Assembly (NCBI GenBank): GCA_963666315.2
Contig: CAXXHG010000043.1
Span: 576,001 to 640,000, forward strand
DNA from: Candidatus Binatia bacterium
Lineage (GTDB): Bacteria > Desulfobacterota > Binatia > Bin18
Direction: 5' to 3'
Length of the DNA stretch: 64,000 bases
Shown here piece after piece: positions 21 through 20,269 of this stretch. Position 1 is the stretch's first letter, and every line of letters starts with the position of its first letter. The notes below the pieces were generated by a model. It did not search any database, had not been told where the DNA came from, and saw nothing but the letters and a program-made list of their open reading frames with translations. The position numbers and the translations under genes were made by a program.

Positions 21-1979
21 TTACATCCACTGCTTATGCCAGGCTTGAAACATCAACACGTTCCACAACGGCCGCTTCCAATCCGATGTTCCAGCTATAT
101 GCTCGGTCCACTTCTGCCGCACCAGGGCTGAGTTGAATATGCCGGTTTGACACAATGCCTGTTCCGACAGCAGCTCCTCTGCCCATTCACGCAACGGTCC
201 GCGCAACCAGCCACTCAGCGGAACCCCAAAACCCTGCTTGGGACGTTCAACAAGCTCACGCGGCACATATTTATACAGTAACTGCCGCAGCAGCCATTTG
301 CCCTGTCCGTTACGGATCTTCATGTGAGCGGGTAGCGTCCAGGTGAACTCGACAATTCGATGATCCAGCAGTGGCACCCGCACTTCAAGACTGACCCCCA
401 TGCTGGCCCGATCGACCTTGGTCAGATTATTATCCGGCAGATAGGAAAGGGTGTCCAAAAACTGCATCTGAGAGACAATGTCCACCGCTGGAGTTGTGTG
501 GTGTGTGAGATACGATTTCTGCGCCCCGTCAGCGTCCGCATTGATAACGAGTCTGGCCGGGTCCTCCCAGCGCCGCCACAGTTGGCGATCGTGTAAGTCG
601 GCTGTATCGAGCGATAATGCACGGGAGAGTTGGTGAGTGTGTTTGACCAAACGAGAGAGTGGTTTAGGTGCAAGTGACTGTACATTTTCTAAGAACGGAG
701 GAAGCAAGCCTGTGGCCTGCGCCAACACAGCACGGACAGGACGTGGCAACCGTGAGAATCGGCCCCATAGCTGGGCGGCTTTGATATAGCGTTTATACCC
801 AGCGAATAGTTCATCGCCGCCGTCTCCGGAGAGCGAAACAGTGACCTCCTGCCGGGCCAAATGCGAGACAAAACAAGTCGGAATCTGCGAGGTGTCAGCA
901 AAGGGCTCATCATACCAGTCAGGCAAGCGTGGCAGGAGGTCTGAGGCGTGACTTGGCTCGACAACAAGTGTCTGATGGTCAGTGCCTAGGTGTCGCCCAA
1001 TGCGCTGCGCATACTGGGATTCATCCCGGCCTGCTTCCTGAAAGCCAATAGTAAACGTCTTGATAGGACGCGGGCTGTGCTGCTGCATGAGCGCGACAAT
1101 GGTTGAAGAATCAATCCCACCCGACAGAAACGCGCCCAGAGGAACATCGGCAACCATACGCCGTTGGACTGCGTCACTCAGTAGGGTTTCGAGTTGGTCC
1201 AGTGCAAGTTGGTCCAATGTTTGTTGATCTCGTGTTTGTCCGTCATCCGCCTGGAGAGGAGCCTCAGTCCCTTGCTGGATAACATGGTTGAGATCCCAAT
1301 AGCGCGTGATGTGTGGCTCGTGCGACGTACGCAGCTGTAACATGCAGCCGGGTTCAAGTTTATACACGTCACGATAAATGCTGTGCGGAGCAGGAATATA
1401 ATTATAGCGCAGAAACGGAATAACCATGTCTCGGTCAAGCCGTGCGTCAAAGCACGGATGCGCTCGTAGCGCTTTCAGCTCAGAACCAAAGAGAAAGACC
1501 TGTCCGAAACGAGCCCAGTAGAGTGGCTTAATGCCGATGCGGTCGCGTACCAGGGTGAGACAGTGTTCTTGGCGATCCCATAGACCAAAGGCAAACATGC
1601 CGAGACAGCGCCTCACCGTCTGTTCGATCCCCCAGGCGGCACACGCTTCAAGCAATACTTCGGAGTCACTGTTCCCGCGGAAGATGTGGCCGTGCGCTTC
1701 GAGGTCTGCGCGGAGTTCCTGAAAGTTATACAGCTCGCCATTATATACCAGCACGAAACGCTCATCCGCAGACAGCATGGGTTGGCGGCCGCTTGGTGAC
1801 AGATCGATGACGGATAAGCGTCGATGTGCAAGACCGATTCCATGTGTCTGATCAACCCAGACCCCATTGTCATCCGGTCCGCGGGATACGAGGGTATCTG
1901 CCATGCGCGTGGCCAGCATTGAGAATTCAGACAGTCGAGGATTTGGAGCAGGGTCCAAAAATCCGCTTATCCCGCACAT
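21..1979 (-). CDS. asnB: Asparagine synthase (glutamine-hydrolysing)-type amidotransferase of the polysaccharide/lipid-cluster class
   Basis: N-terminal MCGISG (Ntn Cys; ATG at 1979), RGPD, HRRLSVIDLS, YNGELYNF, RDRIGIKPLY, LSGGIDSS, SGDGGDELFAGY, KVDRASM, RPKQGF. Confidence 0.92.
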   Translation of the reverse strand: MCGISGFLDPAPNPRLSEFSMLATRMADTLVSRGPDDNGVWVDQTHGIGLAHRRLSVIDLSPSGRQPMLSADERFVLVYNGELYNFQELRADLEAHGHIFRGNSDSEVLLEACAAWGIEQTVRRCLGMFAFGLWDRQEHCLTLVRDRIGIKPLYWARFGQVFLFGSELKALRAHPCFDARLDRDMVIPFLRYNYIPAPHSIYRDVYKLEPGCMLQLRTSHEPHITRYWDLNHVIQQGTEAPLQADDGQTRDQQTLDQLALDQLETLLSDAVQRRMVADVPLGAFLSGGIDSSTIVALMQQHSPRPIKTFTIGFQEAGRDESQYAQRIGRHLGTDHQTLVVEPSHASDLLPRLPDWYDEPFADTSQIPTCFVSHLARQEVTVSLSGDGGDELFAGYKRYIKAAQLWGRFSRLPRPVRAVLAQATGLLPPFLENVQSLAPKPLSRLVKHTHQLSRALSLDTADLHDRQLWRRWEDPARLVINADADGAQKSYLTHHTTPAVDIVSQMQFLDTLSYLPDNNLTKVDRASMGVSLEVRVPLLDHRIVEFTWTLPAHMKIRNGQGKWLLRQLLYKYVPRELVERPKQGFGVPLSGWLRGPLREWAEELLSEQALCQTGIFNSALVRQKWTEHIAGTSDWKRPLWNVLMFQAWHKQWM

Positions 1980-2764
1980 GAGCGGTCCTTTGTCGCTGGA
2001 GGCAACTGTTCCGACCTGCCCGACTGTCCCAGATTTCCCAATTTGGTTTTGACCCAACGCTGGAGTTTTGGGGCTCGGCGCACGTAGTAATGCCGCAGCG
2101 GATTTGCTTGCTCGTCAAATTCGTACACAAACGGCTCGCCTGTAAGCGAACGTTTCACACCTGGGATGTCGTTTTCCGCAATGCCATCAAGATAGGTGGT
2201 CAGTGCACGCAGGCTATTGCCGTGCGCGACTATCAAAATCTGTTTGCCTGCTTTGATCTGGGGAATTATCGTTTCGTGCCAGTAGGGGAGCACGCGCGCG
2301 CGGACGGCTTTGAGGGTTTCTGTGCGTGGCAGTTCTGCGTGTGTAAGCTCGGCATAGCGGGGATCATGGCCGGGAAAGCGCTCGTCTGTTGGGTCGAGGG
2401 CCGGGGGTGCGATATCGAAGTGCTGCTGCCAGATCACGACTTGTTCCCGGCCATAACGCTGGGCGATTTCTTGCCGGCTGAGTCCTTGCAGTGCACCACA
2501 ATGGCGCTCATTCAGCCGCCAGCTTGTATGGATCGGAACCTGGAGCTGCATGCCTTCCAGAACGATCTCAAGTGTATGCAGCGAACGCTGCAGATAGGAG
2601 GTAAAGCCCACGTCAAACGAAAAACCAGCCGCTTGCAGGAGCTGGGCGGCTCGTCTGACTTGCTCTTGGCCGTGTGGACTGAGATCGACATCGGCCCAGC
2701 CGGTAAAGCGACGGGCTTGGTTCCACATACTCTGGCCGTGACGAAGAAGAACAAGTTTGATCAT
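1967..2764 (-). CDS. gpmA: 2,3-bisphosphoglycerate-dependent phosphoglycerate mutase
   Basis: LLRHGQSMWN, FTGWADVDLS, WRLNERHCGALQG, AHGNSLRAL; ATGA overlap with the upstream gene and overlap with the asnB start. Confidence 0.88.
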   Translation of the reverse strand: MIKLVLLRHGQSMWNQARRFTGWADVDLSPHGQEQVRRAAQLLQAAGFSFDVGFTSYLQRSLHTLEIVLEGMQLQVPIHTSWRLNERHCGALQGLSRQEIAQRYGREQVVIWQQHFDIAPPALDPTDERFPGHDPRYAELTHAELPRTETLKAVRARVLPYWHETIIPQIKAGKQILIVAHGNSLRALTTYLDGIAENDIPGVKRSLTGEPFVYEFDEQANPLRHYYVRRAPKLQRWVKTKLGNLGQSGRSEQLPPATKDRSCAG

Positions 2765-5268
2765 ACGACGGTGTGAAAGCCGAGCAGGCGGCGAACCTTT
2801 TGGGCAACCTGGTCAAACTCCTGCAGAGCTGGACGTATCTTAAAATCCAAGGGTGCACCGAAAAAGCGCGCAATCTTGCGCTGGACTAGGGTGTCGTGCA
2901 ACGCGCTCAAATCCCGTCGGGGCTGGACAATGCCGCGTTCAATCAATCGAGCGCACACGTACGACAACCCACTTTGGGGTTGTATGCTGCCGCGCTTTTT
3001 GCGCTGCGTGATTTGGGCATGAGTGACTATCCACTCCTTGCAACTCCCGATCAGGTCCGCCGCTCGCTTTGGCAAGGGATAGATGGAGAGCGGTGTAGCG
3101 GTGGTTGCGGCTTCAGCCAACATGGACTCGCTCTCTCCGCTCACAATCAAAACGTCCGCTAGTGCCAGATAACCCAAATACGGATTGTCTTGCTGCCCCG
3201 CTTCCCAGGTATGCACGTAGTGGGCTGGACCCAGCCCGGCTATCAAGGCGGCTGTTTCCGCCTCGCCCGTTCGTCGGCTGGTCGTGGCAAAAACTTTTCC
3301 ACCCACACGTTCGGCAAACGTGCGGACATCTTCTCCCATTTTCCGGGCAATGCTGGGATCAAGCTGATAGCGGGCGGTCGCCCCTCCGACCAGCAGCATA
3401 ATCCATGGATGCGGAGCGTCCTGAACCAGGTGACACCACTGGTCTGCCCCCTGCTTGAGTCGCTCTGGGGTGATTTGCGTCAAAGGTGCCACAGTTTCGA
3501 TACGCCGAGGATGAGGCGGCAGACGAAAATGACTGCACGCGACCCCGATATCGGTGGTATTGGTGGGCCGGCTGCCTTTACGACCGAGCAGTACCAGCCG
3601 GGTGTGTCCTTTGCTTTGGCGCTGAATCCAGCGCGCAACACGCGCGGGGCGCCAGCCTGCGGTAATAATGAGATCGGGCCAGGGTGGGACAAGTGGGTCG
3701 GAATGGGCGACGTTTAAACCAAATCGCGTTACCCGCTGGGAGCCGAGCAGGCGTTTGTGCACATCAGCCAGCGCAGTAAAGCGTAAGGCCTTAGTTTCAT
3801 ATGGCCAGTCCAGGGCATCGGCGAGACCGAGCGCTTGGGCGGTATGGCCCGGCTTATGTGAGGTCAGGACCCAGACCGTTGGGAGACGGCCGAGGTTGCC
3901 GCCAAAAGAGATCTGGGTGCTGGACTTGGGTGTTGTTGACAACGGTTGGACGGCCAGTTGCCAGCGCACGGAGGGATAACGCGGACTGAGCAGGTCCAAT
4001 TGCGCCTGCCACCAGGTAGAGGGCCGCGGGCGTCCCCGCAACAAGTCGCCATTCGGAAGTTGTTGTTCATACGGAAACGCATGCACGGCGACGGCCACAA
4101 AATGGTGAGCACGGCGAAAGAGCTCTTCCAGCATCCAGGGCACATCTTCGTCTGGCACAAAATCAAGGCTATTCGTACAGACAACGCCGTCCGCGCTTTC
4201 TGCCCGACCGGAGTCGCGGGGGTTGCGGGGGTTGTATGATGCCGACTCGACAAAGACAGGATTATACTGCTGCACGCTGGCCCCGTTGCAACTGATTTGT
4301 CTGCTGCCTAAGCCAAACGAATAGTCCAGGATAGTGTGGCTTCCAGTCTGGGCGATAAGGGTCTCTACACACTTCTGGAGCGGATGGCCGTCACCGTTCC
4401 GGTCTGACACTCTCTGAGGCCGTGATGTCTGCCTGAGACTCGATCCGCTACGGAGGCGAGAGAGCAGCGCGGTGTATTGCGCACTCGGCTGCGCTGCTTG
4501 AAAGACCTGATAGCCGGCCTCATTGGCTGTTTGTTCTAAATGAAACCAAAGCTGGGCGACAGGATTATGCTGATACGCATAACGCTGGGGAAATGGCTGC
4601 CACGGCTGGGTCTGGATGGTGGTGTAGTGCAGCAGCTTCGATCGCTCAGCCTCGTATTCTCCGTCGCGTGCATTCCAGTGTTGATCAAGCGCACCCCATA
4701 GATCAGGGACTTCCCGGGCGGCGGCTTCTAACGCTTTACGGCGTTCGTGCTGCGCCGCTTCGAGTGTCCAGACCGTTTTCATCCGCTCGCAGTCGATCAG
4801 CATGACTGACGTGTCGCGGTCGTTTATAGACAGAAAGCCATGGCTGCCCAGAGCTGTGTCAAAAAGTTCGCCGGGATCGGCCAGATAGATTTGGTCCATG
4901 TCATTATAGATGGCAGTGCCGTGCCCGTCAGCAAAATGGGGAATAGCAAATCGATAGTTCGTAAATCCGGTCAGCCAACCGTGCTGATCAAAACCGGCCA
5001 GGTCTTTCATGAGATATAATTCGTACACCCGAGCGGGATCCCGGACCTGCTCAATGGACCAGATAAAGACGCGCTCGGCTCGGTATTGGGCCGGCTCGGT
5101 GCCAACAAAGATGCGGACCGCTGGCTTTTCGCTGGGAGCAACACCAGTGCGCACACCAAGGACGACACGCTCAAGCTGGGTCCGGGTGCCTGGTGTGTGA
5201 TACGGGTCTGTCCGCAGCAGCGAATCAAGTAATCTGCTCACTCTGCGTGCTGTTGTTGAAAAAGCCAT
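2761..5268 (-). CDS. Three-domain protein: GT-A (GT8-like) glycosyltransferase + class I SAM-methyltransferase-like domain + ELM1/GtrOC1-family domain
   Basis: IFVGTE...TGFTNYRFAIP...AIYNDMDQIYLADP (DxD); ILDYSFG...DGVVCTNSLDFVPDEDVPWMLEELF; KPGHTAQALGLA...PPWPDLIITAG...TTSRRTG...NPYLGYLALAD...SESMLAEA. ATG 5268 preferred over TTG 5286. Confidence 0.7.
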   Translation of the reverse strand: MAFSTTARRVSRLLDSLLRTDPYHTPGTRTQLERVVLGVRTGVAPSEKPAVRIFVGTEPAQYRAERVFIWSIEQVRDPARVYELYLMKDLAGFDQHGWLTGFTNYRFAIPHFADGHGTAIYNDMDQIYLADPGELFDTALGSHGFLSINDRDTSVMLIDCERMKTVWTLEAAQHERRKALEAAAREVPDLWGALDQHWNARDGEYEAERSKLLHYTTIQTQPWQPFPQRYAYQHNPVAQLWFHLEQTANEAGYQVFQAAQPSAQYTALLSRLRSGSSLRQTSRPQRVSDRNGDGHPLQKCVETLIAQTGSHTILDYSFGLGSRQISCNGASVQQYNPVFVESASYNPRNPRDSGRAESADGVVCTNSLDFVPDEDVPWMLEELFRRAHHFVAVAVHAFPYEQQLPNGDLLRGRPRPSTWWQAQLDLLSPRYPSVRWQLAVQPLSTTPKSSTQISFGGNLGRLPTVWVLTSHKPGHTAQALGLADALDWPYETKALRFTALADVHKRLLGSQRVTRFGLNVAHSDPLVPPWPDLIITAGWRPARVARWIQRQSKGHTRLVLLGRKGSRPTNTTDIGVACSHFRLPPHPRRIETVAPLTQITPERLKQGADQWCHLVQDAPHPWIMLLVGGATARYQLDPSIARKMGEDVRTFAERVGGKVFATTSRRTGEAETAALIAGLGPAHYVHTWEAGQQDNPYLGYLALADVLIVSGESESMLAEAATTATPLSIYPLPKRAADLIGSCKEWIVTHAQITQRKKRGSIQPQSGLSYVCARLIERGIVQPRRDLSALHDTLVQRKIARFFGAPLDFKIRPALQEFDQVAQKVRRLLGFHTVV

Positions 5269-5409
5269 AGGTCTACGACTAGGCAATTTTTTGTACGTAA
5301 GGGCGAGAAACGGCTGTGGCTATCGGTCTGATGCGGCCCGGGTAGGCACGGGCAAAGACAAGCAGCAGATGCATGACTAGAGGAACTCCCTAGTGGAGCA
5401 TGTGGAGCA

Positions 5410-6657
5410 TCATGATGCCTGCGTTCCAAGCAGATGTTTGCGGTTCCAGAACTGGACTAAACGCAGGGTGTGGAAGCCGAGTGAGGCCACCTGCCAGACA
5501 ACAATGGCAACAAAGACGGGAATCGGAATGTCAAGAAGTAATCCCAGCATAAACAGCGGCACATTGATATTCCGGCGCGAAATAAAGGTCCGCATGCGTT
5601 CATCTAGGGAGGTGTAACCGTGAATCGACTGGCCCATCCGGGCGCTAAACAGCCCGGCCACAATACGATCCAGAACATAAAAGACAGCCATCCACACCGC
5701 CAGTTGGAAGACGGGTGCGCCCGGTATCCCGCCACTTAATGCCCAAGCCCAGGCGAAATACCACACTGGAGGATGAACGATATCCAGCCCATGATCCAAG
5801 ATATCGCCGAGCTTGGACGCCGTGAATGTGAGCCGGGCCAACTTGCCGTCCACCGAGTCGAGTACGCTCATGGTGTAGGCGAGCGTAAAGGCCGAGATCC
5901 AGTATCCGTACGCGAAGAGCGGCACAGCGAGAAAGGTGATGAAGACATTAAATACCGAGATGACGTTAGGATGTACGCGCCAGCGGGCGAACGGACGTAC
6001 GGCACGCCATACCAGTGGCGGGTAGACATATTTGGTAAAAAAGTCGGTCGAGCCTTTATAGTTGGACCAAAACAGAAAGCGTTCGGCCCGGTCTCGGCTG
6101 GCTGTGTCCAGAATGCGAAAAAGATATACGGGCAGATCACGCCGGAGCTTGCGAATATACGACGGCACTTCGGCCAGTACGACTTCCTGGAGGCGGCCTG
6201 CCTGAAGACTGCGTTCCGCAAGCTTCGGCAGCCGGATTCCGGTTGAAGGGGGCAGGGGGTCCTGTCCTTCGAAACGAAGTGCAGCAGTCTGTGCTTCTCC
6301 GGCTTTTCCCCGAGCGGCCCAAGAACCCGAGCACTCGCCAAGATGGCGCAACAGGCGGCTATCCACAACAGCGTCCGCCTCTAGTGCGAGCAGCGGTTCG
6401 TTTTGGACCGTTTGAGACAGCGTCGTCCGATATTCCGACACTGTGCGACGTTCATGCCCCCAGCGTATCGAAAGCCGGCGCAGGAGATCCGGTGGCAGGA
6501 GCGAAGGAAGATCTACCGTCTCAGCAGAGAGCTGGACATAGACTTCGTTCGGGTCTAGCCCAGCTTCGATAATGGTATGTAGCTGGCGTTCGAGCAGCGT
6601 CATGCCGAAAATCCGCAGTCTGCTGCTCGGATTGGTCGCGTCTATCCAGATAAACAA
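5410..6657 (-). CDS. CDP-alcohol phosphatidyltransferase with an N-terminal degenerate NTP-transferase-like domain (CpgA-like paralogue)
   Basis: DSVDGKLARLTFTASKLGDILDHGLD matches DxxDGxxAR(x8)GxxxDxxxD; N-terminal IFGMTLLERQL; several TM helices. Confidence 0.8.
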   Translation of the reverse strand: MFIWIDATNPSSRLRIFGMTLLERQLHTIIEAGLDPNEVYVQLSAETVDLPSLLPPDLLRRLSIRWGHERRTVSEYRTTLSQTVQNEPLLALEADAVVDSRLLRHLGECSGSWAARGKAGEAQTAALRFEGQDPLPPSTGIRLPKLAERSLQAGRLQEVVLAEVPSYIRKLRRDLPVYLFRILDTASRDRAERFLFWSNYKGSTDFFTKYVYPPLVWRAVRPFARWRVHPNVISVFNVFITFLAVPLFAYGYWISAFTLAYTMSVLDSVDGKLARLTFTASKLGDILDHGLDIVHPPVWYFAWAWALSGGIPGAPVFQLAVWMAVFYVLDRIVAGLFSARMGQSIHGYTSLDERMRTFISRRNINVPLFMLGLLLDIPIPVFVAIVVWQVASLGFHTLRLVQFWNRKHLLGTQAS

Positions 6658-6797
6658 GAATCTTTACCCCCTGTGCGGATGCCCATTCCCCACCATTCCC
6701 TATCCTAGGTGCAGGGTAGTCTAGCTGGGTGATGATGACGGCGAAAGAGAGGCGCGCTGGCTGTCTACGGCTCAGGCGGCAGTCTAGAGAGGAGGAA

Positions 6798-6825
6798 TTG
6801 CGCAGTTGCGTACGCCGTCTACAAT
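6798..6825 (+). promoter_or_regulatory. Putative sigma70 promoter, possibly leaderless, for the 6832 gene
   Basis: TTGCGC-16 nt-TACAAT with the -10 box ending 6 nt before the GTG start at 6832; no SD adjacent to the start. Confidence 0.4.
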
Positions 6826-6831
6826 GCCGGC

Positions 6832-7674: not shown

Positions 7675-7859
7675 AGCGTGTCTAATAAGTGTCTCTGTGG
7701 CCCAAGCCTGAGCGAAAGCGGCGTGACCAAGGCGCCCGAAACAGCCATATCCACTGTGATATGGCGATGGAGGGTAACAGGGACACGCTGTTTGCAGCCG
7801 GGCGACGTCCAGAATGAACTTTTTGGACACGCTCTTAAGAATAAAGAAGGATAAACCGT

Positions 7860-10933: not shown

Positions 10934-11005
10934 AATCCCTAAGTTATTCAGCCTATACCACTTCCCTAGGGTATGATAAGACCGCTCTTCCGCAGGAGCA
11001 CAGGC

Positions 11006-12223: not shown

Positions 12224-13452
12224 GTCGCATGAGTAGACGGACGTGTTCGTCTCCCGTTTCTCAACTCAGACGCGTCTTTTGGACCGTGCCGGTTGGATTT
12301 CCCTATATCTTCAGAATTTTCGGAATTGTCGGAATCCTCGGAGTTCTCGCAATTTTGGGAGGAGTTCCCACATTTGGCTTATGGACGGGCTGGAGTGGCG
12401 ATCTCTTTGCCGCAGCTGAGCGCGGAAATCCGGCCGCCCGCCTACTGCCGGGAGAGCTTGCCCACGAGCGGTGGGATCTGACTGCCCGGTTCGATTCCGG
12501 CCATTTTCTGTTCGCTGAATTTTTGATCACCAACTTTGGGCTTGGTGATCGGAACGCTGCAGTGATTGGTCATGTCGTTCGACCCAACGGTCAGAGCCGG
12601 CGATTTCGGAACGGTCGGCGTGAAAGTCGATGGCAGCTCTCGTCAGATCGGCTCCGGATGGAAGTCGGGTCGAGTCTGCTCGACCAACGCAGCCCAAAAC
12701 ATCAGCTGCGGGTCAGGAAGAAGAGTACGCAGATTGAGCTGGATTTTTATCCGCGCGGGCCGGCTGTCTGGGCAGCTGATTTTCCGCCATCCGGTTACGC
12801 GCTGGATCTGCTTGATCCTGCTGCACGGGCTGAGGGGTCTGTCTGGGTCAAAGGCATGGACACGCCGGTGACGGTACACGGGACTGTCGCCGTCACCCAT
12901 AGCTGGGCGAATGAGGCGGAATCTGATCTGGTGCTGCGTCGGCTGGAATTCTTTTTGTTTCCGGATAAGCAAAGTGAGATGTCGCTCTACTTAGCGGATC
13001 TCACGACACCCCACGGAGCCCACAGCCGTTGGCTTGTTGTCAAAAACGGACAACAGGTGGTCCACGAGGCGCAAAATTTTCAGCTTACGTTTGACGGGAA
13101 TGTGAAAAATATCGGGTCCTACCATGTCCCCCAACAGTTCTCTTTTGAGAGTACAGCTGCCCATCCACACATAAAAGGCCGGGTTCAGCTCGACCGGGTG
13201 CTCCTGCTGTATAATCCTCTGGATGATATCCCGCAGCCCTTTCGCTTTCTGATCTCTCTCAAGCTGAAACCGCGTCGGGTGTGGCTCCTGTCGCCTTTCG
13301 AAATAATCTTCCAGCCGGACCAGGCGCGTGCATCAATTACGCTGACAGGCACTGGCATCACAAAAGTCTCGTTTCTCAACCCCTTAGCCCCCACCGCGAC
13401 CGGATGTAACGGTCTCGGTTTTTCAGGGATTTCGTGCGACTGGGCCTTTTAA
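12220..13452 (+). CDS. Membrane-anchored beta-rich hypothetical protein, possible AttH/Svf1-like lipocalin fold
   Basis: ATGA overlap with cpgA; one N-terminal TM helix; ERWDLTARFDSGHFLFAEFLITNFG followed by alternating beta-strand patterns. Confidence 0.55.
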   Translation: MSRMSRRTCSSPVSQLRRVFWTVPVGFPYIFRIFGIVGILGVLAILGGVPTFGLWTGWSGDLFAAAERGNPAARLLPGELAHERWDLTARFDSGHFLFAEFLITNFGLGDRNAAVIGHVVRPNGQSRRFRNGRRESRWQLSSDRLRMEVGSSLLDQRSPKHQLRVRKKSTQIELDFYPRGPAVWAADFPPSGYALDLLDPAARAEGSVWVKGMDTPVTVHGTVAVTHSWANEAESDLVLRRLEFFLFPDKQSEMSLYLADLTTPHGAHSRWLVVKNGQQVVHEAQNFQLTFDGNVKNIGSYHVPQQFSFESTAAHPHIKGRVQLDRVLLLYNPLDDIPQPFRFLISLKLKPRRVWLLSPFEIIFQPDQARASITLTGTGITKVSFLNPLAPTATGCNGLGFSGISCDWAF

Positions 13453-14432
13453 GCAATTGCCGGGCTGGTCTTAAGAAAGGCCACCTTGGCGCGCTTGGGC
13501 GCGTCCTTAAGGCTGCTCCAGATGTGGTGCATATCGAGACCGCTGGCAGCGAGGAGGTGCCCGAGGCGTTAGCCCGCTTAGCGCGTCAGGAAGTTACAGT
13601 GCTGGCTGTGAATGGCGGGGACGGGACGCTGCAGCATGTACTGACCGAAGTTTTAAGCAGCAATATCTTCGAGACGCTGCCCTGTATTGCCCCTCTGTGC
13701 GGTGGACGAACAAACATGAGCGCGCATGATATCGGCAGTCGTGGCAAGCCGGCTGCTGGCCTTGCTACGCTCATGAGTAGCGTGCAAGCGAATACGCTTG
13801 GACAACGGATTGTCGAACGGCCTGTGTTGCGCATTGACTGCGGGCCACACCAGCGTCCTCAATATGGGATGTTCTTCGGCGCAGGCGTCATCCAACGGGC
13901 GCTGGCTTTTAAGCATCAGCTGTATCCCCAGCAGCGCTTGCAAGGACTGTTTGGGGCGGGGCTCTTCTTGGGTGGGACGTTGCTGCGGATCGCGTGTGGT
14001 GCGCAAACCGGACTCCTGACACCGGACGAAATTGGGATAGGTCTGCACGCTGAGCATGGTGAGCAGTATGTGAATGATGAGTGTGTTCCGCTGGCACACC
14101 TGGAACGGGAACGGTTCCAACTGCTGATGGCTACAACGCTTGCGCGTCTTTTTCTCCGCATTCGCCCGTTTTGGGGACGAGAAGATGCTGCAGTCCGATT
14201 TACCTCTATCGCGGCAAGAGCGAAGCGGAGTCTTCCTGCTGTGCTAAAAATCTTGCGGGGGCTGCCACCTGCGCCGTCCATTAGCGCGAGCGGCTATTGC
14301 AGCCGAAATGTTGAGAGTGTGACCTTACACATGGACTGTGGTTTCACGATTGATGGCGAACTGTTCGACCCGGAGCCAGGACGAACAGTCCGTCTTGAGG
14401 CCGACCATAGACTCCGTTTTGTGCGAGCATGA
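13434..14432 (+). CDS. cpgB: Diacylglycerol/sphingosine kinase family, CpgB-like ceramide kinase
   Basis: VNGGDGTL, GGRTNM, GMFFGAG, FTIDGE; position between cpgA-like and cpgC-like genes. Confidence 0.78.
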   Translation: MRLGLLSNCRAGLKKGHLGALGRVLKAAPDVVHIETAGSEEVPEALARLARQEVTVLAVNGGDGTLQHVLTEVLSSNIFETLPCIAPLCGGRTNMSAHDIGSRGKPAAGLATLMSSVQANTLGQRIVERPVLRIDCGPHQRPQYGMFFGAGVIQRALAFKHQLYPQQRLQGLFGAGLFLGGTLLRIACGAQTGLLTPDEIGIGLHAEHGEQYVNDECVPLAHLERERFQLLMATTLARLFLRIRPFWGREDAAVRFTSIAARAKRSLPAVLKILRGLPPAPSISASGYCSRNVESVTLHMDCGFTIDGELFDPEPGRTVRLEADHRLRFVRA

Positions 14433-15433
14433 GTGATATGGACGGACCTGCAACATCCCTCGGTGCAGCACCTGACATGCTCCTGACCGAGCTCTTTTTG
14501 AAAGAGTTGACCCAGCCTGTTCCACAAGAAGCTGACATTATCGCTGCTGAAATTCAGCGCCGTCACGGTCAGGCCGTGGATGCCGTGCTTTTTTACGGCT
14601 CCTGCCTGCGTACTCAGCAGATGACCGACGCTGTGCTAGATTTTTATGTTCTGGTCCGCTCATATCCGGCGGCGTATGAAAAGCCCATACTGAGATGGCT
14701 GAATGCACTCCTGCCACCAAACGTGTTCTATCTTGAGATAGGACATGCGCCGCAGACGCTGCGAGCAAAGTATGCCGTTATCTCGACTGTGGATTTTGAG
14801 CAGGCGACTACTCCACGCAGCATTCCTGCCATTATATGGGCGCGGTTTTGCCAGCCCGCACGGCTTGTGTATGCACGCGATAGTGTCGTGCAAGAAAGAG
14901 TGGCGCAGGCAACAGCGCAAGCCGCGCTGACGTTCATAAGACGGGCGGTCCTCTTTTTCGCTTCTCCGGAGGGTGATCTGCCTATTCCCTGTGCCGACCT
15001 GTGGCACACCGGATTCCAAGAAACTTACCGTACAGAGTTTCGTACCGAACGACCAGAAACCATTCGTGCCTTATACAAAGCAAGCCCTGAGCGATACGAC
15101 CGGATAGCGCGGTGCGGACTCCAACGACTTCAACAGCAACGCGTGTTTGACCTCCAAGAGCAAGGCGGGCAGTGGACGCTGTCTATGCCGCTGCTTCAAC
15201 GGTGGACGAGACGCTGCGGCTGGACCCTGCGCCGTTCCTTGGCAAAAATGCTGTATGCTTTGCGGCTCTTCAAGACGGCGCTGACCTTTGGAGATTGGCT
15301 GCCCTATGTCCTGTGGAAGCTGGGGCGGCATACTGGGGTGTGGGTTGAGCTGTCTGAGCGGCAGCGCCGCTACCCATTGATCTGGGGCTGGCCGGTGCTG
15401 TTTAAGCTTCTTCGGCAACGTGTTCTTCGATAA
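14429..15433 (+). CDS. cpgC: Pol-beta-type nucleotidyltransferase-fold protein, CpgC-like
   Basis: VLFYGSCLR...LDFYVLV, LLPPNVFY, AKYAV, WARFCQP, TYRTEFRTE, YVLWKL.RHTG; ATGA overlap with the kinase. Confidence 0.65.
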   Translation: MSDMDGPATSLGAAPDMLLTELFLKELTQPVPQEADIIAAEIQRRHGQAVDAVLFYGSCLRTQQMTDAVLDFYVLVRSYPAAYEKPILRWLNALLPPNVFYLEIGHAPQTLRAKYAVISTVDFEQATTPRSIPAIIWARFCQPARLVYARDSVVQERVAQATAQAALTFIRRAVLFFASPEGDLPIPCADLWHTGFQETYRTEFRTERPETIRALYKASPERYDRIARCGLQRLQQQRVFDLQEQGGQWTLSMPLLQRWTRRCGWTLRRSLAKMLYALRLFKTALTFGDWLPYVLWKLGRHTGVWVELSERQRRYPLIWGWPVLFKLLRQRVLR

Positions 15434-16518
15434 CTGATGCAGATGTCCGGTGTAGGCGTATCCGTCGTATCAAGTGTCGGATCGCCGAAAGAATGCCGCG
15501 CTCGCTGGTTTGATTATAGGAAGAGTCCAAGGGCAAAGCGTCCTGCAGCTGGCGATGCAGCCCCCCCAGACTATGATAGGGGACATTCGGCAAGAGGTGA
15601 TGAAGCGCGTGATAGCGTAAGCCCACCGGCGCAGCCAGAACGGTCAGGACCGGCCATCCGCTCAAATTGATGGAGTCAAGCAGCTGTTCTGTCAGGCTCA
15701 GTTGCCGCCCGCTATTTTCATAGCGATGAGCGGCCAGGGTGCGGACTTGATTCAGCACCAATATACCGGCTGTCACCAGGTACCACTGCAAGATCCAAGT
15801 GGTGGGCAGGAGGCCCATCATCCAGCTTACGCAGGCGAACCAAACAACCAGGGCTGCGGCCGCTTCTTGAACGCGCCAGCGGGAGATCTGATGTTTGCGT
15901 GGCAGCGGACGACAATAGGCTGGGTTAATGACCAGGGTCGAGGCGCGCTGAACAAGCAGCTTGCGCAATGGAGGAATGCTATACGACAGAGGTCCCAGGA
16001 TACCCCAGCGAAGTACTAGTAAGGCTGGAACGATCAACACACCGAGGACAAACCAGCCAAGGCTGAGTATGTTTCCCTGGGCAAGGGGCGCGTACTCGGG
16101 GTCGTTTGCTGTACCGAAAACATTGGGCCGATGGTGATCCCCGTGGGATCCAACATACATCAGGCTGGGTAAGAGGAAAGGCAAGCCGACAAGGAGATGC
16201 CAGGCGATTTCGAAACCTGGCAGACTGCCTCGCTTACAAATGTGCAATTTCATGGATAAATAAGGTCGCACGGAGCAGTGCGACCAGAGCGATGACGGTT
16301 GCTGCGAAGTAGGCCAAGGAGCTGAATGGCGAGTGAAGACTCAGATAAAAAGCCGTCCAACCCACTACAGATGACAGCAAGAGATCAAGCCAGTAGATGC
16401 CAGGATGTGGCTGAAACGTCTTGAGAAACTGTTTGCGCAGCCGTTGTGCCAGCCGCTCGTCCGGTGTTGCTACGAGCAGGTCCTCAAGGGATGGGAGGGT
16501 TGACTCTCTTGGCTGCAC
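15402..16518 (-). pseudogene. Membrane fatty-acid desaturase/hydroxylase (possible CerH-like), +1 frameshift near 16236
   Basis: His boxes FIHEIAH, HGDHH, YHALHH split across ORFs 16234-16518 and 15402-16271; removing one T (cat ttg [t]aag cga) restores HLKRGSLPG. Confidence 0.75.
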
Positions 16519-16750
16519 TCTTTTTTCCTAATCTTGCCTAGTCCCGCCTAGTCTTGCTTACCCCCGCTCATAACAAAGCCGGCTTCTATAAGAGCGCCCT
16601 AGGCCGCCTTGTCAAGAGAGATCTCTGGGAAGTCGAAGAGGGGGTCAATTGAGTAACATCGTTATTTCTAGTAAAACAACTGTGAAGTGGGTATGCCCTT
16701 GGCTAAATCCGGAAAATCTGTTACCTACCGTGCGATTTCATCGTGATTCA

Positions 16751-17785
16751 ATGGCTTCTGTGAGCATCTTGGTGACAATACCACGTGCGCCGGTGGTGAA
16801 GGCAGATTCTCGCGTCCTTGTGACTGGAGGAACTGGATTCATCGGATCACACTTCATCGACGCGCTTGTTGAACAAGGCGTGCGACCGCGCGTGCTCGTG
16901 CGTCGCACGAGTAATGTCTCTCAGCTCTCGGCACATGATCTCGAACTTATGACAGGCTCATTAGAAGATTCCGACAGTCTGGCCCGTGCGGTATCTGGGG
17001 TTGAGGTTGTCATCCATATCGCGGCCATAACAAAGGCGCCCACAGAGAAAAAATATTTGCGCGCTAACGCGGCCGGTACCCAAGCGCTTGTTGATGCAAT
17101 GCGCTCTGCTGAGCCACGTCCTCGACGGCTCGTCTATCTCAGTTCGCTTGCGGCAGCTGGGCCAGTGTTGGATGGACAACCCTTCGGACCAGACGACGCG
17201 CCACGACCTATTACTGCGTATGGACGAAGCAAGCTCATTGGTGAGCAAGCCTGTCTTGCTGCGTCTGACGCATTCGACGTTGTTGTCTTGCGTGCACCAG
17301 TGGTGTACGGACCACGAGAACGTGATTTTTTCTTGCTCTTTCGTTTGGCGACTCGGGGCATTTTGCCTACGCCAACGGGACCGGACCGCGTTGTCCAGCT
17401 CATCCATGTTGCGGATTTAGTTGAGGCGCTGATCCGTGGAGCAACAATGCCCGACGCACGTGGCATCTATCACGTAGCCGAATCACAATCCTATGCCTGG
17501 AGCGAGATTGCCGCGTGTATGGGGCGAGCAGTTGGGCGCTCAGTCCACCTGGTGCGTATCCCACAGCTCTTGATGCAAATTGCCGCAGCAGGCAGTGAAG
17601 TCGGGGCGGCAATAATAGGACGGGCGACCATATTTAATCGGGAAAAAGTCAAGGAGTTACTCGCTCCCGGCTGGTTGTGCGAAACGGCACTGGCCAGGCA
17701 AGAGCTAGGATTTGAGGCCAAGATTTCGCTTTCGACAGGATTTGCTGAAACAGCAGCATGGTATAAACGCAAGGCATGGTTGTAG
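16751..17785 (+). CDS. cerR: NAD-dependent epimerase/dehydratase-family SDR, CerR-like ceramide reductase
   Basis: VTGGTGFIG, YLSSLAA, YGRSK, VYGPR; directly upstream of spt; start uncertain. Confidence 0.75.
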   Translation: MASVSILVTIPRAPVVKADSRVLVTGGTGFIGSHFIDALVEQGVRPRVLVRRTSNVSQLSAHDLELMTGSLEDSDSLARAVSGVEVVIHIAAITKAPTEKKYLRANAAGTQALVDAMRSAEPRPRRLVYLSSLAAAGPVLDGQPFGPDDAPRPITAYGRSKLIGEQACLAASDAFDVVVLRAPVVYGPRERDFFLLFRLATRGILPTPTGPDRVVQLIHVADLVEALIRGATMPDARGIYHVAESQSYAWSEIAACMGRAVGRSVHLVRIPQLLMQIAAAGSEVGAAIIGRATIFNREKVKELLAPGWLCETALARQELGFEAKISLSTGFAETAAWYKRKAWL

Positions 17786-17884
17786 TGTGGAAGGTCGTGG
17801 AGCCTGGAGGGGTGAGATGAAACCGGGACCACAACATGTCGCTAAAACTGACAATCTGGGATGTCACGGAGAGAGGGGGACGGG

Positions 17885-19087
17885 ATGAACCTTTTCGGGA
17901 AATGTGCTCGTTTTACTCGCGCTCGAGAGGCTCAGGCTACCGGGTATTACCCATTTTTTACGCCGATAGAATCATCGCAAGGGACAGAAGTGATGGTCCA
18001 CGGCGAGCCCAAGGTCATGATGGGCTCAAACAATTACCTTGGTTTAACCCACCATCCAAAAGTGTTGGCTGCTGCAGAGGCTGCACTCAAACGCTACGGC
18101 AGTGGCTGTACCGGTAGCCGTTTCCTGAATGGGACGCTGGATCTTCACGACCAACTCGAAGAGCGTCTGGCCCATTTTCTGAACAAAGAAGCCTCGCTGG
18201 TCTTTAGCACGGGTTATCAGACCAATTTAGGCATCCTGGCGACCCTGATCGGGAAAAGCGATTATCTCTATCTTGATAAGCTTGACCACGCCAGCGCGGT
18301 AGACGGCTCTCAGCTCGCCCATGGGACAGTACTCCGTTATCCGCACAGCGATCTCGTTACACTTGAACAACAGCTTGAGAAAACGCCCCCAAAGGCGGGC
18401 AAGTTGATTGTCACAGATGGCATTTTCTCCATGGAAGGCGACATTGCGGAGCTGCCTGGTTTAGTCGCGCTGGCCGAACAATACGACGCTGAGATTATGG
18501 TCGATGACGCGCACGCCCTGGGCGTCTTAGGAGAAAATGGCGGTGGTACAGCGCAGCATTTTCACCTGGAGGACAAGGTCAGCCTGATTATGTCCTCATT
18601 CTCCAAATCGCTGGCTGCCATCGGTGGGGTTGTGGCGGGGCCGGAGCCGGTTATCCACTATCTGAAACACCATGCTCGTTCCTTGATTTTTAGTGCCAGC
18701 ATGCCGCCTGCGTCTGTGGCCACGGTTTTGACTGCCCTGCAGATTATTGAGGAAGAGCCTGAACGTCGTGCAGCACTATGGCGGAACACCCACCGCATGC
18801 AAGACGGACTCCGGAGCCTGGGCTACGACCTGGGGGGGAGTGATACCCCGGTGATTCCTATTATTGTCGGGGATATGTGGTTGATGGGCATGATCTGGAA
18901 AGAGCTGTTTGACTCAGGCATCTTTACTAATCCAGTCATTCCTCCCGCCGTGCCGGAAAATTCGTGCCGTGTCCGGATCTCGATGATGGCAACGCATACG
19001 GATGAACAGATTGATTTTGTCCTAGACGTCTTTGCCCGTATTCGGCCTCACATTCAGGTGGAACAGGTAGAGAAGGTGGCCGTTTAG
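17885..19087 (+). CDS. spt: Serine palmitoyltransferase (AOS-family PLP enzyme)
   Basis: GSNNYLGLT, GCTGSRFLNGT, FSTGYQTN, DGIFSMEGD, VDDAHALG, SFSKSL, IFSASMPP; flanked by cerR-like and bcerS-like genes. Confidence 0.85.
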   Translation: MNLFGKCARFTRAREAQATGYYPFFTPIESSQGTEVMVHGEPKVMMGSNNYLGLTHHPKVLAAAEAALKRYGSGCTGSRFLNGTLDLHDQLEERLAHFLNKEASLVFSTGYQTNLGILATLIGKSDYLYLDKLDHASAVDGSQLAHGTVLRYPHSDLVTLEQQLEKTPPKAGKLIVTDGIFSMEGDIAELPGLVALAEQYDAEIMVDDAHALGVLGENGGGTAQHFHLEDKVSLIMSSFSKSLAAIGGVVAGPEPVIHYLKHHARSLIFSASMPPASVATVLTALQIIEEEPERRAALWRNTHRMQDGLRSLGYDLGGSDTPVIPIIVGDMWLMGMIWKELFDSGIFTNPVIPPAVPENSCRVRISMMATHTDEQIDFVLDVFARIRPHIQVEQVEKVAV

Positions 19088-19127
19088 TTCTTGGCTGGCC
19101 TGTCTCTGCTAGCGGGCAAGGTCGAGC

Positions 19128-20252
19128 ATGCGGGATGCCGTACGCATAGATCGTGTGGCAGGCCGGCAGGACCTTCAGCGTTTCATTCGACTCCCCTGGC
19201 GCTTATACCGCCAGGATCCGGCCTGGGTCCCTCCGCTCCTCTTTGATCTCAAAAATCTCCTCTCGCCTAAAAAACATCCGTTTCATCAACATGCCGATGT
19301 CCAATACTTCCTGGCCCGCCTGGACGGGGAAGTTGTGGGGCGTATTGCGGCTATTGTCAACCATCAGCACGTGCAATTCCATGCTGAGCCAGTCGGGTTT
19401 TTTGGGTTTTTTGAGAGCATTGACAATCAAGACGTTGCCACTGCGCTGTTGACGGCTGCTGAATGCTGGGTGGCCGAGCGCGGAATGCAACGCATACGCG
19501 GCCCTATGAATTTCTCGACCAACGAGGAATGTGGGCTGCTGGTTGATGGTTTTCACGATGCGCCCAAAATTATGATGCCGCATCATCTGCCGTACTATGG
19601 TGTACAGATAGAAACGGCGGGTTATGGAAAGGCGAAAGATTTGTTCGCATACATACTCGATGTGCGCGGCACCCCCCCCCCGGAACGGCTCGTCCGTGGT
19701 ATTAAGCGGCTGCAGCAGCGCCAGAATATTCGACTTCGACCCATCAGCAAAAAGCGGTTTGATGAAGAGATAAGAATCCTACATGGGATTTATCACCGTA
19801 CGTGGGAGAAAAACTGGGGTTTTGTGCCGATGACCGAAGCTGAGGTGGATCTGTTTGCGAGCCAACTTCGCCTCGTTGTTGATCCGAAACTGTGTCTTAT
19901 TGCGGAACACCAAAACGAGCCAGTAGGCTTTGCGCTCGCGATTCCCGATTATAACCAGGCCTTGCGTCATATCGATGGACGCTTGTTTCCGTTTGGTTTG
20001 CTGAAACTCCTATGGTACCGGCGCACCATCAATATGGCCCGTATTCCGCTGCTTGGCGTCAATCCGGGCTTTCGTCGTCGGGGCATTGAGGCGATGCTTT
20101 ATGTCAAGCTGTGGGAGGTCGTGCCACAAAACGGCTACCCGGTGGTCGAGTGTTCCTGGATTCTGGAAGACAACTGGGACATGCGACGCGGACTCGAACA
20201 GATGGGCGCGCACGTCTATAAGACGTACCGGGTATATGAAAAGGCGGTGTGA
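19128..20252 (+). CDS. bcerS: Double-GNAT bacterial ceramide synthase
   Basis: FIRLPWRLY..DP.WVPPL, VGRIAA, GFFGFFE, RGPMNFSTNEECGLLVDGF, NWGFVP, SWILEDN, KTYRVYEK. Confidence 0.8.
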   Translation: MRDAVRIDRVAGRQDLQRFIRLPWRLYRQDPAWVPPLLFDLKNLLSPKKHPFHQHADVQYFLARLDGEVVGRIAAIVNHQHVQFHAEPVGFFGFFESIDNQDVATALLTAAECWVAERGMQRIRGPMNFSTNEECGLLVDGFHDAPKIMMPHHLPYYGVQIETAGYGKAKDLFAYILDVRGTPPPERLVRGIKRLQQRQNIRLRPISKKRFDEEIRILHGIYHRTWEKNWGFVPMTEAEVDLFASQLRLVVDPKLCLIAEHQNEPVGFALAIPDYNQALRHIDGRLFPFGLLKLLWYRRTINMARIPLLGVNPGFRRRGIEAMLYVKLWEVVPQNGYPVVECSWILEDNWDMRRGLEQMGAHVYKTYRVYEKAV

Positions 20253-20269
20253 GGGGCGTCTCGAAAGAC

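Follow-up and report, generated by a model that had tools for sequence, protein, structure and literature searches.

A probable sphingolipid biosynthetic island with ceramide and Cpg-type head-group genes in a bacterium most likely of the class Binatia

Results

A ceramide module beside Cpg-type head-group genes

The first 20.3 kb of the 64-kb stretch of DNA analysed here (the window) comprise 16 intact open reading frames (ORFs) and one gene remnant, and are read as a sphingolipid locus in which a module for ceramide synthesis stands beside genes for an anionic head group of the type associated with the Cpg proteins of Caulobacter. The case for this core reading, made from sequence comparison, is strong, and it is considered probable that the region is a working biosynthetic island for a ceramide with a phosphate-based anionic head group. 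A first-pass annotation, made from the DNA letters, had proposed a sphingolipid locus combining these two gene sets, and homology, synteny and a tree against Caulobacter loci agree with it; all 16 of the ORFs that it listed are present where it placed them or close by. Features that it did not include are a CC_1158-like phosphoesterase, an AttH-like fold, a Tam41 fold in the CpgC-like protein, the GT8/KdoT-like nature of an 841-aa protein and a deleted exporter. The genes fall largely into three units:

21-6657, minus strand: divergent four-gene operon (second cytidine diphosphate (CDP)-alcohol phosphotransferase, 841-aa ELM1-domain protein, phosphoglycerate mutase, AsnB-type protein)
11006-15433, plus strand: four-gene unit (CDP-alcohol phosphotransferase, 410-aa protein, DAGK-type kinase, 334-aa protein)
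16751-20252, plus strand: three-gene unit (short-chain dehydrogenase/reductase (SDR), pyridoxal phosphate (PLP)-dependent alpha-oxoamine synthase (AOS), GNAT protein)

The translational coupling reported in the first-pass annotation is seen as ATGA overlaps at 12220-12223 and 14429-14432. In addition, the GTG start of the kinase at 13434 overlaps the preceding stop by 19 nt, and in the divergent operon the mutase starts (ATG 2764) before the ELM1 gene has ended, just as the asnB ATG at 1979 overlaps the stop of the mutase. A metallophosphoesterase gene lies divergent from the four-gene unit that starts at 11006. Scans of the window against Rfam and for tRNAs found nothing; promoter-like sites numbered 10 against 9.2 +/- 2.9 expected, and terminator-like sites 31 against 18.7 +/- 4.4 expected, none of them usable as operon bounds.

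Conservation was judged from 80 loci, each with flanks of up to 10 kb, fetched in one scan of species-representative genomes with a profile made of the window CpgA and 15 relatives; about 20 of them are labelled Caulobacter or Caulobacteraceae. The counts in this paragraph are of matches that cover at least 70% of the query and, as many loci end at contig ends, are lower bounds; the ORFs of relatives were anchored by tblastn, and tblastn searches ran over 81 sequences (the 80 loci and the window). Matches were found for CpgA in 77 of the 80 loci, CC_1158 in 71, CpgC in 67, the kinase and the nucleotidyltransferase in 62 each, bCerS in 49, CerR in 41, Spt in 40 and the desaturase in 23. The same genes surround CpgA in most of these loci, across several phyla, much more consistently than chance would allow. 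Locus L062 of C. segnis has the gene-for-gene order of the published CC_1152-CC_1164 cluster when its Pfam content is set against S1 Text of PMC11324152. Domain calls were made with Pfam and NCBIfam, and the catalytic motifs that were checked are all intact.

The ceramide module

The genes assigned to ceramide synthesis and tailoring are as follows:

16751-17785, plus strand: CerR-like NAD(P)-dependent reductase (SDR/epimerase; Epimerase, 6e-36; an ORF from 16649 is also called)
17861-19087, plus strand: serine palmitoyltransferase (SPT; gene product Spt) of a Bacteroidota-like type (AOS-family PLP enzyme)
19128-20252, plus strand: bCerS-like GNAT ceramide synthase (Acetyltransf_1)
15402-16271, minus strand: fatty-acid desaturase/hydroxylase family protein (PF00487, 1.4e-21)

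The CerR-like and bCerS-like proteins align with the products of the C. segnis genes at the corresponding positions (31% identity over 326 aa, E 3e-33, and 41% over 370 aa, E 9e-80, respectively), and the Spt with that of L062 at 40% (E 5e-88). Within the closer Binatia loci (L002-L008 and L010) Spt identity is 86-92%, falling to 72-76% in L009, L012 and L013, and in 11 Binatia-type loci spt is likewise flanked by CerR-like and bCerS-like genes. The best NCBIfam model for the enzyme is NF047600 SerpalmtaseCFB at 530.6 bits, against 390.9 for bioF (140 bits lower) and 377 for Kbl, and the cutoff of neither of the latter two models is reached. In the PDB, rows 1-10 of the search are all SPTs (432-284 bits), with a Sphingobacterium SPT at 432 bits and Sphingomonas SPTs at 284-303 bits, and are followed by Kbl/BioF-type chains at 277 bits or less. 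The comparison with Kbl and BioF for which the first-pass annotation had called, made here through these two rankings, places the PLP enzyme with known SPTs.

As had also been remarked from the letters, the window is without an acyl carrier protein, an acyl-acyl carrier protein synthetase or LptF/LptG, and a Pfam scan of 43 further ORFs of at least 90 aa between 20 and 64 kb bears this out. Queries for AcpR and AasR taken from proteobacterial loci gave no tblastn match at E<=1e-3 in the window or in the 13 Binatia-type loci (L001-L013); AcpR was matched in 27 and AasR in 29 of the 81 sequences, all proteobacterial. Given the model and PDB rankings, the CerR and bCerS neighbours and the absence of AcpR and AasR from the window and these 13 loci, the Spt is taken to be of the type without a dedicated carrier protein. 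Spt enzymes of the Bacteroidota type use acyl-CoA and, with no dedicated AcpR or AasR, the acyl donor is presumably acyl-CoA here as well. The desaturase/hydroxylase family protein has HGDHH and HALHH boxes and adjoins the cluster in its 23 loci, and on its sequence is probably a ceramide tailoring enzyme.

The Cpg-type head-group core

Five genes have counterparts among the Caulobacter head-group genes:

11006-12223, plus strand: CpgA orthologue, CDP-alcohol phosphotransferase (PF01066)
13434-14432, plus strand: CpgB-like lipid (putative ceramide) kinase (DAGK_cat, 5e-8)
14429-15433, plus strand: CpgC-like protein of 334 aa, homologue of CC_1161
9974-10933, minus strand: calcineurin-like metallophosphoesterase, CC_1158 orthologue (PF00149, 1.8e-13)
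6832-7674, plus strand: CC_1153-type (MobA/CofC-like) nucleotidyltransferase (NTP_transf_3, PF12804, 2.5e-13)

The window CpgA is 48% identical to the products of Caulobacter genes in the CpgA position (E 3e-91), has its catalytic motif intact at residue 247 and lies within the CpgA clade of the tree described below (SH-aLRT 100); its best PDB relative is AF2299. A feature search (Atlas) with its N-domain returned unnamed clusters only, and the N-domains of both CDP-alcohol phosphotransferases of the locus had no Pfam match at E 10. The kinase has GGDG at residue 61, stands between cpgA and cpgC as in Caulobacter and is 28-30% identical to the same-position Caulobacter protein (30% for L062, E 3e-17), and the phosphoesterase is 37% identical (E 6e-52) to the product of the C. 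segnis gene divergent from cpgA.

The CpgC-like protein is 33-37% identical, at 94% coverage or more, to the product of the Caulobacter gene between the kinase gene and spt (37% for L062, E 3e-40). It was aligned with 29 orthologues, those of Caulobacter included. Its AlphaFold2 (AF2) model has a pLDDT of 90.9, and the top five Foldseek matches of the model are all Tam41 (7ECD, 6IG2, 6IG4; E ~1e-7, probability 1.0, TM 0.43-0.57), followed by aminoglycoside nucleotidyltransferases at E ~2e-4 and weaker. An InterPro Tam41 domain on CC_1161 is already recorded in S1 Text of PMC11324152. By analogy with Tam41, CpgC may activate ceramide-1-phosphate with cytidine triphosphate (CTP) to give CDP-ceramide, a term found in none of the searchable literature, nor in the main text of PMC11324152.

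The gene at 6832 had been annotated at first pass as CpgD-like. Its product, which has weak NCBIfam matches to KdsB, CofC and MobA, is instead like CC_1153: identity to the CC_1153 orthologue of C. segnis is 31% over 258 aa (E 5e-32), whereas the CpgD orthologue of the same species gives only E 0.055, and its identity as CpgD is rejected. In the PDB it finds only TTHA0179 (2DPW, 1.5e-14), and IMPCT (4JD0) is found by the CpgD orthologue, in agreement with published work, and not by it. CpgD is a COG1213-type CTP:phosphoglycerate cytidylyltransferase, and its C. segnis orthologue (PF12804, PF00483 and PF01128) had no tblastn match at E<=1e-3 in the 64-kb window, a negative result that rests on this orthologue as the query and not on the CpgD structures reported in PMC13228409. 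Of the 80 loci, 47 have a CpgD match next to the cluster, the Binatia locus L012 included. With the window devoid of CpgD, the organism may lack the second phosphoglycerate step, encode it in another part of the genome or carry it out in another way.

The divergent operon and a deleted exporter

Upstream of the nucleotidyltransferase gene, on the minus strand, lie the following:

5410-6657, minus strand: second CDP-alcohol phosphotransferase, here called paralogue 2 (PF01066, 5e-9)
5279-5374, minus strand: 31-codon in-frame remnant of an MsbA-like ABC exporter gene (blastn and junction alignment against L001)
2761-5268, minus strand: 841-aa GT8-like and ELM1/KdoT-like fusion protein (PF06258, 2.5e-52)
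1967-2764, minus strand: 2,3-bisphosphoglycerate-dependent phosphoglycerate mutase, GpmA type (NF010713, 315.8 against a cutoff of 305)
21-1979, minus strand: AsnB-type glutamine-hydrolysing amidotransferase (Asn_synthase, 6.9e-119, and GATase)

Paralogue 2 has an N-terminal cytoplasmic domain like that of CpgA and an intact D..DG..AR(8)G...D...D motif at residue 267. In a tree of 97 rows the family splits into two clades, each with SH-aLRT 100: a CpgA clade of 77 rows, which holds all Caulobacter rows and the window CpgA, and a sister clade of 20 rows, which holds paralogue 2 of the window and no Caulobacter row. Members of the sister clade come from Binatia, Myxococcota, Spirochaetales-labelled metagenome-assembled genomes (MAGs), Rhodospirillales, Virgifigura, Variovorax, Piscinibacter, Panacagrimonas and Burkholderiaceae; the row of L020, taken beforehand as a paralogue, places as CpgA in the tree. 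Paralogue 2 stands beside the cluster in 19-20 of the 80 loci. A general role for it as the enzyme that forms ceramide phosphoglycerate (CPG) was rejected, given that Caulobacter makes CPG without it.

The 841-aa protein, whose start is likely the ATG at 5268 by comparison with L001, consists of a GT8-like part (about residues 40-275), an unassigned middle and a C-terminal GT-B domain of the ELM1/KdoT-like kind, for which PF06258 scores 178.4 bits over residues 479-741 against a gathering cutoff of 27. SRRT is found at residues 670-673 and is kept in five of the seven full-length orthologues (L057 has SRRL and L050 SPRT), as well as in L012 and L025, where ELM1 is a gene by itself. The tentative assignment of the first part draws on 26 of 30 Atlas feature matches of residues 40-275 that lie in GT8-bearing clusters (score 0.97), on N128-D129-x-D131, which is invariant in eight sequences, and on L012, in which the GT8-like part is a separate gene with a PF01501 match at 2.8e-5. 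ELM1 matches are found in 7 of the 80 loci at 70% coverage or more and in part in about 12 more. KdoT of Acinetobacter baumannii (A1S_2903) is described as an inverting ELM1-like GT-B transferase that uses cytidine monophosphate (CMP)-activated 3-deoxy-D-manno-octulosonic acid (Kdo) in the lipooligosaccharide (LOS) core (PMC12856342, PMC10936431); its conserved SRRT motif is described as needed for activity, with its arginines mattering (PMC12856342), and, as far as the accessible portions of the literature go, it is the only characterised bacterial member of PF06258 found. General Pfam scans saw no genes of Kdo synthesis in the window.

The mutase has its RHG and HGNS motifs and adjoins the ELM1 gene also in the Binatia loci L004 (where it is cut by the flank), L005 and L008, at 60-64% identity; it is a candidate for the supply of 2- or 3-phosphoglycerate to the head group. 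AsnB, the last gene product of the operon, begins with MCGI and scores 478.8 against a TIGR01536 cutoff of 267. An AsnB match lies within 10 kb of CpgA in one of the 80 loci (L063), a count to be read with flanks that in most relatives are too short to show the position. In relatives L005 and L008 (62-68% identity) the asnB site is taken by a 2-oxoglutarate (2OG)-Fe(II) oxygenase gene; asnB is therefore not counted as a secure member, and its place in the sphingolipid system is doubtful. That the divergent operon belongs to the system, as the first-pass annotation had proposed, is supported: its CDP-alcohol phosphotransferase paralogue, its ELM1 gene and, in relatives, an ABC exporter recur next to the cluster in several phyla, whereas asnB is not conserved at its site.

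Locus L001 carries between its paralogue and ELM1 genes a gene for a 580-aa protein with ABC_membrane and ABC_tran domains (L001 2056-3798; Pfam run on the orthologues). By blastn, window positions 3264-5338 correspond to L001 1-2115 (86%) and 5332-6660 to L001 3756-5097 (90%), leaving L001 2116-3755 without a window counterpart; some 1.64 kb has thus been deleted in frame from within the gene. A short repeat, GGCC[G/A]CATCAG, marks the junction, and the remnant consists of the two ends of the exporter gene. The exporter was found in 25 of the 81 sequences and not in the window, and each of the 10 Binatia loci long enough to include the position (L001, L003-L008 and L010-L012) has it intact. 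The window genome has lost the cluster's own exporter.

Two other loci show arrangements of their own around these genes. At L012:578-7946 a tailoring block holds CpgD-like, sulfotransferase, separate GT8 and ELM1, ABC exporter and paralogue 2 genes, a content that suggests variation of the head group between strains, possibly by sulfation. At L011:879-3164 (minus strand) a 761-aa ORF with two LptF_LptG domains, a fused LptF-LptG, adjoins the ABC exporter of the cluster.

Locus L050, from Piscinibacter koreensis, has its genes for the GT8-ELM1 fusion, the desaturase, the kinase and the ABC exporter in a head-to-tail run (14177-20611, minus strand), with CpgD, CC_1153, bCerS, paralogue 2, LptF/G, CpgA, CpgC and CerR nearby. 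The tailoring genes are thereby linked to the sphingolipid pathway on evidence that does not depend on the Binatia loci, and this cultured betaproteobacterium is a tractable model for the extended cluster.

An AttH-like protein and other genes of the Binatia version

Three further genes lie within or between the units above:

12220-13452, plus strand: membrane-anchored AttH-like double beta-barrel protein of 410 aa (AF2 model and Foldseek)
7860-8585, plus strand: SnoaL-like (NTF2-fold) protein (PF12680, 1.6e-7)
8759-9841, minus strand: HtrA-like serine protease with PDZ domain (Trypsin_2 and PDZ)

The first of these, listed at first pass as hypothetical, starts with a hydrophobic segment, is all-beta in the remainder and gave no Pfam match even at E 10, its soluble part included. 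Its AF2 model (pLDDT 83) has as top Foldseek match AttH NE1406 (2ICH; E 6e-12, probability 1.0, TM 0.53-0.67), followed by lipocalin-like fungal Diels-Alderases, kievitone hydratase and 25-phosphosteroid lyase. Its probable role is in binding or handling the lipid at the membrane. The gene stands between cpgA and the kinase gene in 19 of the 80 loci, mostly MAGs labelled Binatia, Myxococcota, Deltaproteobacteria or 'Spirochaetales'; L013 ('Proteobacteria') and L055 ('Gammaproteobacteria') are among the 19 and group with the others, and none of the Caulobacter-type loci among the 80 has it. The alignment of the family leaves out the ORFs of L057 and L018, which have internal stops.

The SnoaL-like and HtrA-like genes lie between the nucleotidyltransferase and phosphoesterase genes in the Binatia versions of the cluster. 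The former is found at the same place in eight loci (L001, L003-L008 and L010; 45-73%) and nowhere else among the 80, the latter at the same place in L001-L010 (51-87%) and, beyond those, only as a match of 18% coverage in L011.

Relatives and probable host

The 12 loci nearest by CpgA are L001 (89%; "uncultured Enterobacteriaceae"), ten Candidatus Binatia MAGs (51-77%) and one Thermodesulfobacteriota, and other shared genes are 58-92% identical to these nearest loci. In the tree the window and L001 fall in a nine-row clade (SH-aLRT 99), of whose seven other rows six are Binatia and one, L004, Thermodesulfobacteriota. Given that both the nearest loci and this clade consist mostly of Binatia-labelled MAGs, the organism is taken as a member of the class Binatia, which on sequence comparison is its most likely position; this agrees with the non-alphaproteobacterial host suggested by the first-pass annotation.

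The genes of L001 (CAZBUD010000076.1) are 73-90% identical to those of the window, and its Enterobacteriaceae label looks wrong. Two further loci share that label, L058 and L069, and group with beta/gamma- and alpha-proteobacterial rows.

The rest of the window

Beyond 20 kb the window holds pentose-phosphate enzymes, sensor kinases, glycosyltransferases and molybdopterin genes, of which the following groups were distinguished:

24437-26576, minus strand: a histidine kinase core, a separate CHASE8 sensor ORF and a YfiR/HmsC-like (DUF4154) protein in a row
33407-43752, plus strand: a contiguous sugar-phosphate block with a 972-aa transaldolase-phosphoglucose isomerase fusion, transketolase, RpiA, 6-phosphogluconate dehydrogenase, glucose-6-phosphate dehydrogenase, glucokinase and 6-phosphogluconolactonase
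43747-50120: envelope glycosylation genes for an Alg9-like GT22, a HAD hydrolase, a GT2 with a GtrA domain, a PAP2 protein and a PMT_2/ArnT-like protein
50360-53635, minus strand: two adjoining MoeA genes, of which the longer is a fusion with a PBP-like domain
54385-56265: a second PMT_2/PMT protein

The histidine kinase and CHASE8 ORFs may be one split gene. Between 44 and 50 kb the G+C content falls to 0.43-0.49, and this low-G+C glycosylation region may be an acquired island.

Discussion

The following route is proposed. Homology and synteny indicate that Spt, bCerS and CerR make (dihydro)ceramide, which the desaturase/hydroxylase family enzyme probably tailors, and that the orthologues of CpgB, CpgC, CpgA, CC_1158 and CC_1153 build a phosphoglycerate-type anionic head group on it. 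In this scheme the CpgC-like protein would convert ceramide-1-phosphate and CTP to CDP-ceramide, the CC_1153-like enzyme would activate glycerate or the phosphoglycerate supplied by the mutase of the operon, and the CpgA-like protein would transfer it. Paralogue 2 could then add another or a different phospho-alcohol, and the GT8-like and KdoT-like fusion could add sugars, possibly a CMP-activated acidic sugar among them, with the anchored AttH-like protein handling the lipid at the membrane. That the head group is elaborated beyond ceramide diphosphoglycerate (CPG2), as the enzyme families alone would have it, is held at about an even chance, on account of the lack of CpgD and the deletion of the exporter.

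Several observations weigh against this account or against parts of it. Beginning with the core, the Spt lies below all curated Spt cutoffs (530.6 of 640 bits for the CFB model, 388.3 of 500 for beta and 321.8 of 670 for alpha), and the identity of the kinase to CpgB is only 28-30%, from which its substrate is not readable. The match of CpgC to Tam41 is by fold only, at 13-15% identity for those TM scores of 0.43-0.57; the CpgC-like protein has no Pfam match at E 10, and a 30-sequence profile matched PDB sequences no better than chance. Caulobacter depends on CpgD for CPG2, and no relative of CpgD was found in the 64 kb.

The content of the divergent operon varies among close relatives: paralogue 2 is absent from L005 and L008, the mutase is not at its place in L006 and L007, and the 2OG-Fe(II) oxygenase takes the place of asnB. 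The N-terminal 300 aa of the fusion protein have no Pfam (PF01501) match at E 10, nor has its middle stretch of 191 aa any Pfam match at that threshold, and the sole PDB sequence match of the GT8-like part to a GT8 enzyme is WbbM at a chance-level E of 0.49. Loss of the exporter could mean that the tailoring branch is decaying in the window genome, and the AttH-like gene is optional among close relatives, being absent from L002-L004, L007, L008 and L010. Finally, the host is uncultured and the locus is known here from its genes alone; the placement in Binatia rests on the labels of MAGs that share the cluster, and the window transketolase, about 80% identical to proteins labelled from many phyla, is uninformative on the host.

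These observations are in keeping, in part, with an alternative in which the locus is an ordinary CPG/CPG2 cluster and the divergent operon, placed beside it by chance, serves other envelope or central-metabolic tasks. Every core Cpg gene has a Caulobacter counterpart, gpmA passes the cutoff of a housekeeping equivalog model, asnB is not conserved at its site, the operon varies among relatives and its exporter is deleted. However, this alternative is rather unlikely for several reasons: first, paralogue 2 has the special architecture of CpgA, and the 19-20 loci in which it adjoins the cluster carry the labels of no fewer than four phyla or classes. Second, ELM1 genes and the ABC exporter recur, and in L050 stand head to tail with the ceramide kinase gene, while the block of L012 also contains a sulfotransferase gene and has GT8 and ELM1 as separate genes. 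Third, the genes are translationally coupled, and CpgD is missing from the window.

A head group made of another phospho-alcohol, for instance inositol phosphate, through an action like that of IPCT-DIPPS or phosphatidylinositol phosphate (PIP) synthase, is improbable. The best curated models of both CDP-alcohol phosphotransferases are those for archaetidylinositol-phosphate, PIP-synthase and IPCT/DIPPS, although far below cutoff, and their best PDB relatives are AF2299 and PIP synthases; the window CpgA, however, lies inside the clade of Caulobacter CpgA-position genes, which are tied genetically to CPG2, the scanned ORFs showed no gene for inositol-phosphate synthase or for another polyol-phosphate enzyme, and the operon encodes a phosphoglycerate mutase. 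That the PLP enzyme is of the Kbl/BioF type and the region no sphingolipid locus is barely credible, and that identity is rejected on the model and PDB rankings: no Spt cutoff is reached and the bioF and Kbl models still score 377-391 bits, but the Spt model stands 140 bits above bioF, the ten best PDB rows are SPTs (432 against 277), and its gene is flanked by CerR-like and bCerS-like genes, like those of the 11 Binatia-type loci, beside Cpg genes.

Building on the core reading of a ceramide with a Cpg-type anionic head group, a bolder proposal can be made, though the chances are against it: a lipid resembling the core of lipopolysaccharide on a ceramide anchor may be made in Binatia, several Myxococcota and beta/gamma-proteobacteria. 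It would be a phosphoglycerate sphingolipid with a further phospho-alcohol added by the clade of paralogue 2, and with a hexose and a CMP-activated acidic sugar added by the GT8 and KdoT-like pair, with CpgC as CDP-ceramide synthase, a dedicated mutase and a tailoring block that varies between strains. If this were true, the tailoring block (sulfotransferase, oxygenase, amidotransferase and exporter) would vary in the manner of O-antigen and core loci.

To our knowledge, no sphingolipid other than CPG2 of Caulobacter has been shown to sustain life in the absence of lipid A, and we know of no chemistry yet assigned to CpgA, CpgC or CC_1153. The Tam41 fold of CpgC points to a CDP-ceramide intermediate, and the operon-encoded mutase bears on the question of a dedicated phosphoglycerate supply raised in PMC12275187. 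In several phyla the cluster is accompanied by the CpgA sister clade, the KdoT-like/GT8 fusion and the MsbA-like exporter. Sphingolipids whose head groups exceed that of CPG2 in size are predicted from this, and the prediction is testable in cultured carriers (Piscinibacter koreensis, Panacagrimonas perspica, Variovorax sp. and Virgifigura deserti).

A literature search found nothing that links Binatia or Binatota with sphingolipids or ceramide. As far as that search reached, the Binatia host, the CpgA sister clade, the AttH-like gene, the operon mutase, and the KdoT-like/GT8 fusion and MsbA-like exporter as recurrent companions of the cluster are new; supplementary tables of earlier surveys may already list some of the taxa.

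Comparison with known systems

The closest known system is the Caulobacter crescentus cluster CC_1152-CC_1168 (CCNA_01210-01223; PMC9393093, PMC11324152, PMC10331486, PMC12275187). As set out in PMC11324152, it comprises CC_1152 CpgD (PF00483/PF01128/PF12804), the CofC/MobA-like CC_1153, CC_1154 bCerS, the LptF/G paralogues CC_1155/1156, the HIT protein CC_1157, the calcineurin-like phosphoesterase CC_1158, CC_1159 CpgA (PF01066), the kinase CC_1160 CpgB, CC_1161 CpgC, CC_1162 Spt, CC_1163 AcpR, CC_1164 CerR and CC_1165 AasR; its make-up is also covered by PMC12275187 and PMC9393093. Spt, bCerS and CerR are described as making ceramide, which CpgB phosphorylates (PMC9393093, PMC11324152, PMC12275187), cpgC as needed for CPG, and cpgA, CC_1152, CC_1153 and, in part, CC_1158 as needed for CPG2 (PMC11324152, PMC9393093). 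CpgD makes CDP-glycerate and favours D-2-phosphoglycerate, and a dedicated phosphoglycerate-producing enzyme has been raised as an idea (both PMC12275187). The spread of cpg genes beyond the Alphaproteobacteria is already in print, CpgB being described as conserved "across many classes" (PMC10331486) and CC_1161 homologues being reported in alpha- to delta-proteobacteria, with clusters in beta-/gamma-proteobacteria (PMC11324152).

The window has in common with this system the orthologues of Spt, bCerS, CerR, CpgA, CpgB, CpgC, CC_1158 and CC_1153, as well as the local order in which the phosphoesterase gene is divergent from cpgA-kinase-cpgC. It is without the CpgD, AcpR, AasR, LptF2/G2, HIT protein and Wzx-like flippase of Caulobacter, whereas the AttH-like protein, paralogue 2, the GT8-ELM1 fusion, gpmA, the desaturase, and the SnoaL-like and HtrA-like genes are its additions. 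Furthermore, its Spt is Bacteroidota-like, cerR-spt-bcerS form one tandem unit, and the host is apparently a member of Binatia, not a proteobacterium.

Four other systems are alike in single components. AF2299 and IPCT-DIPPS (PDB 4O6M, 4MND) have, like the window CpgA, the CDP-alcohol phosphotransferase signature and a cytoplasmic N-domain followed by a membrane domain, but the substrates differ and the window N-domain has no family match. The CDP-diacylglycerol synthase Tam41/Mmp37 has a fold like that of the CpgC-like protein, whose presumed lipid is ceramide-1-phosphate in place of phosphatidic acid. AttH (2ICH) and the lipocalin-like double-barrel enzymes have a common fold with the 410-aa protein at 9% identity, to which the window protein adds an N-terminal membrane anchor. 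KdoT, compared by family and by its described motif and not by sequence, belongs to the same Pfam family as the C-terminus of the fusion protein and has SRRT in common with it; it acts in LOS core synthesis, whereas the window domain is fused behind a GT8-like part and encoded within a sphingolipid cluster.

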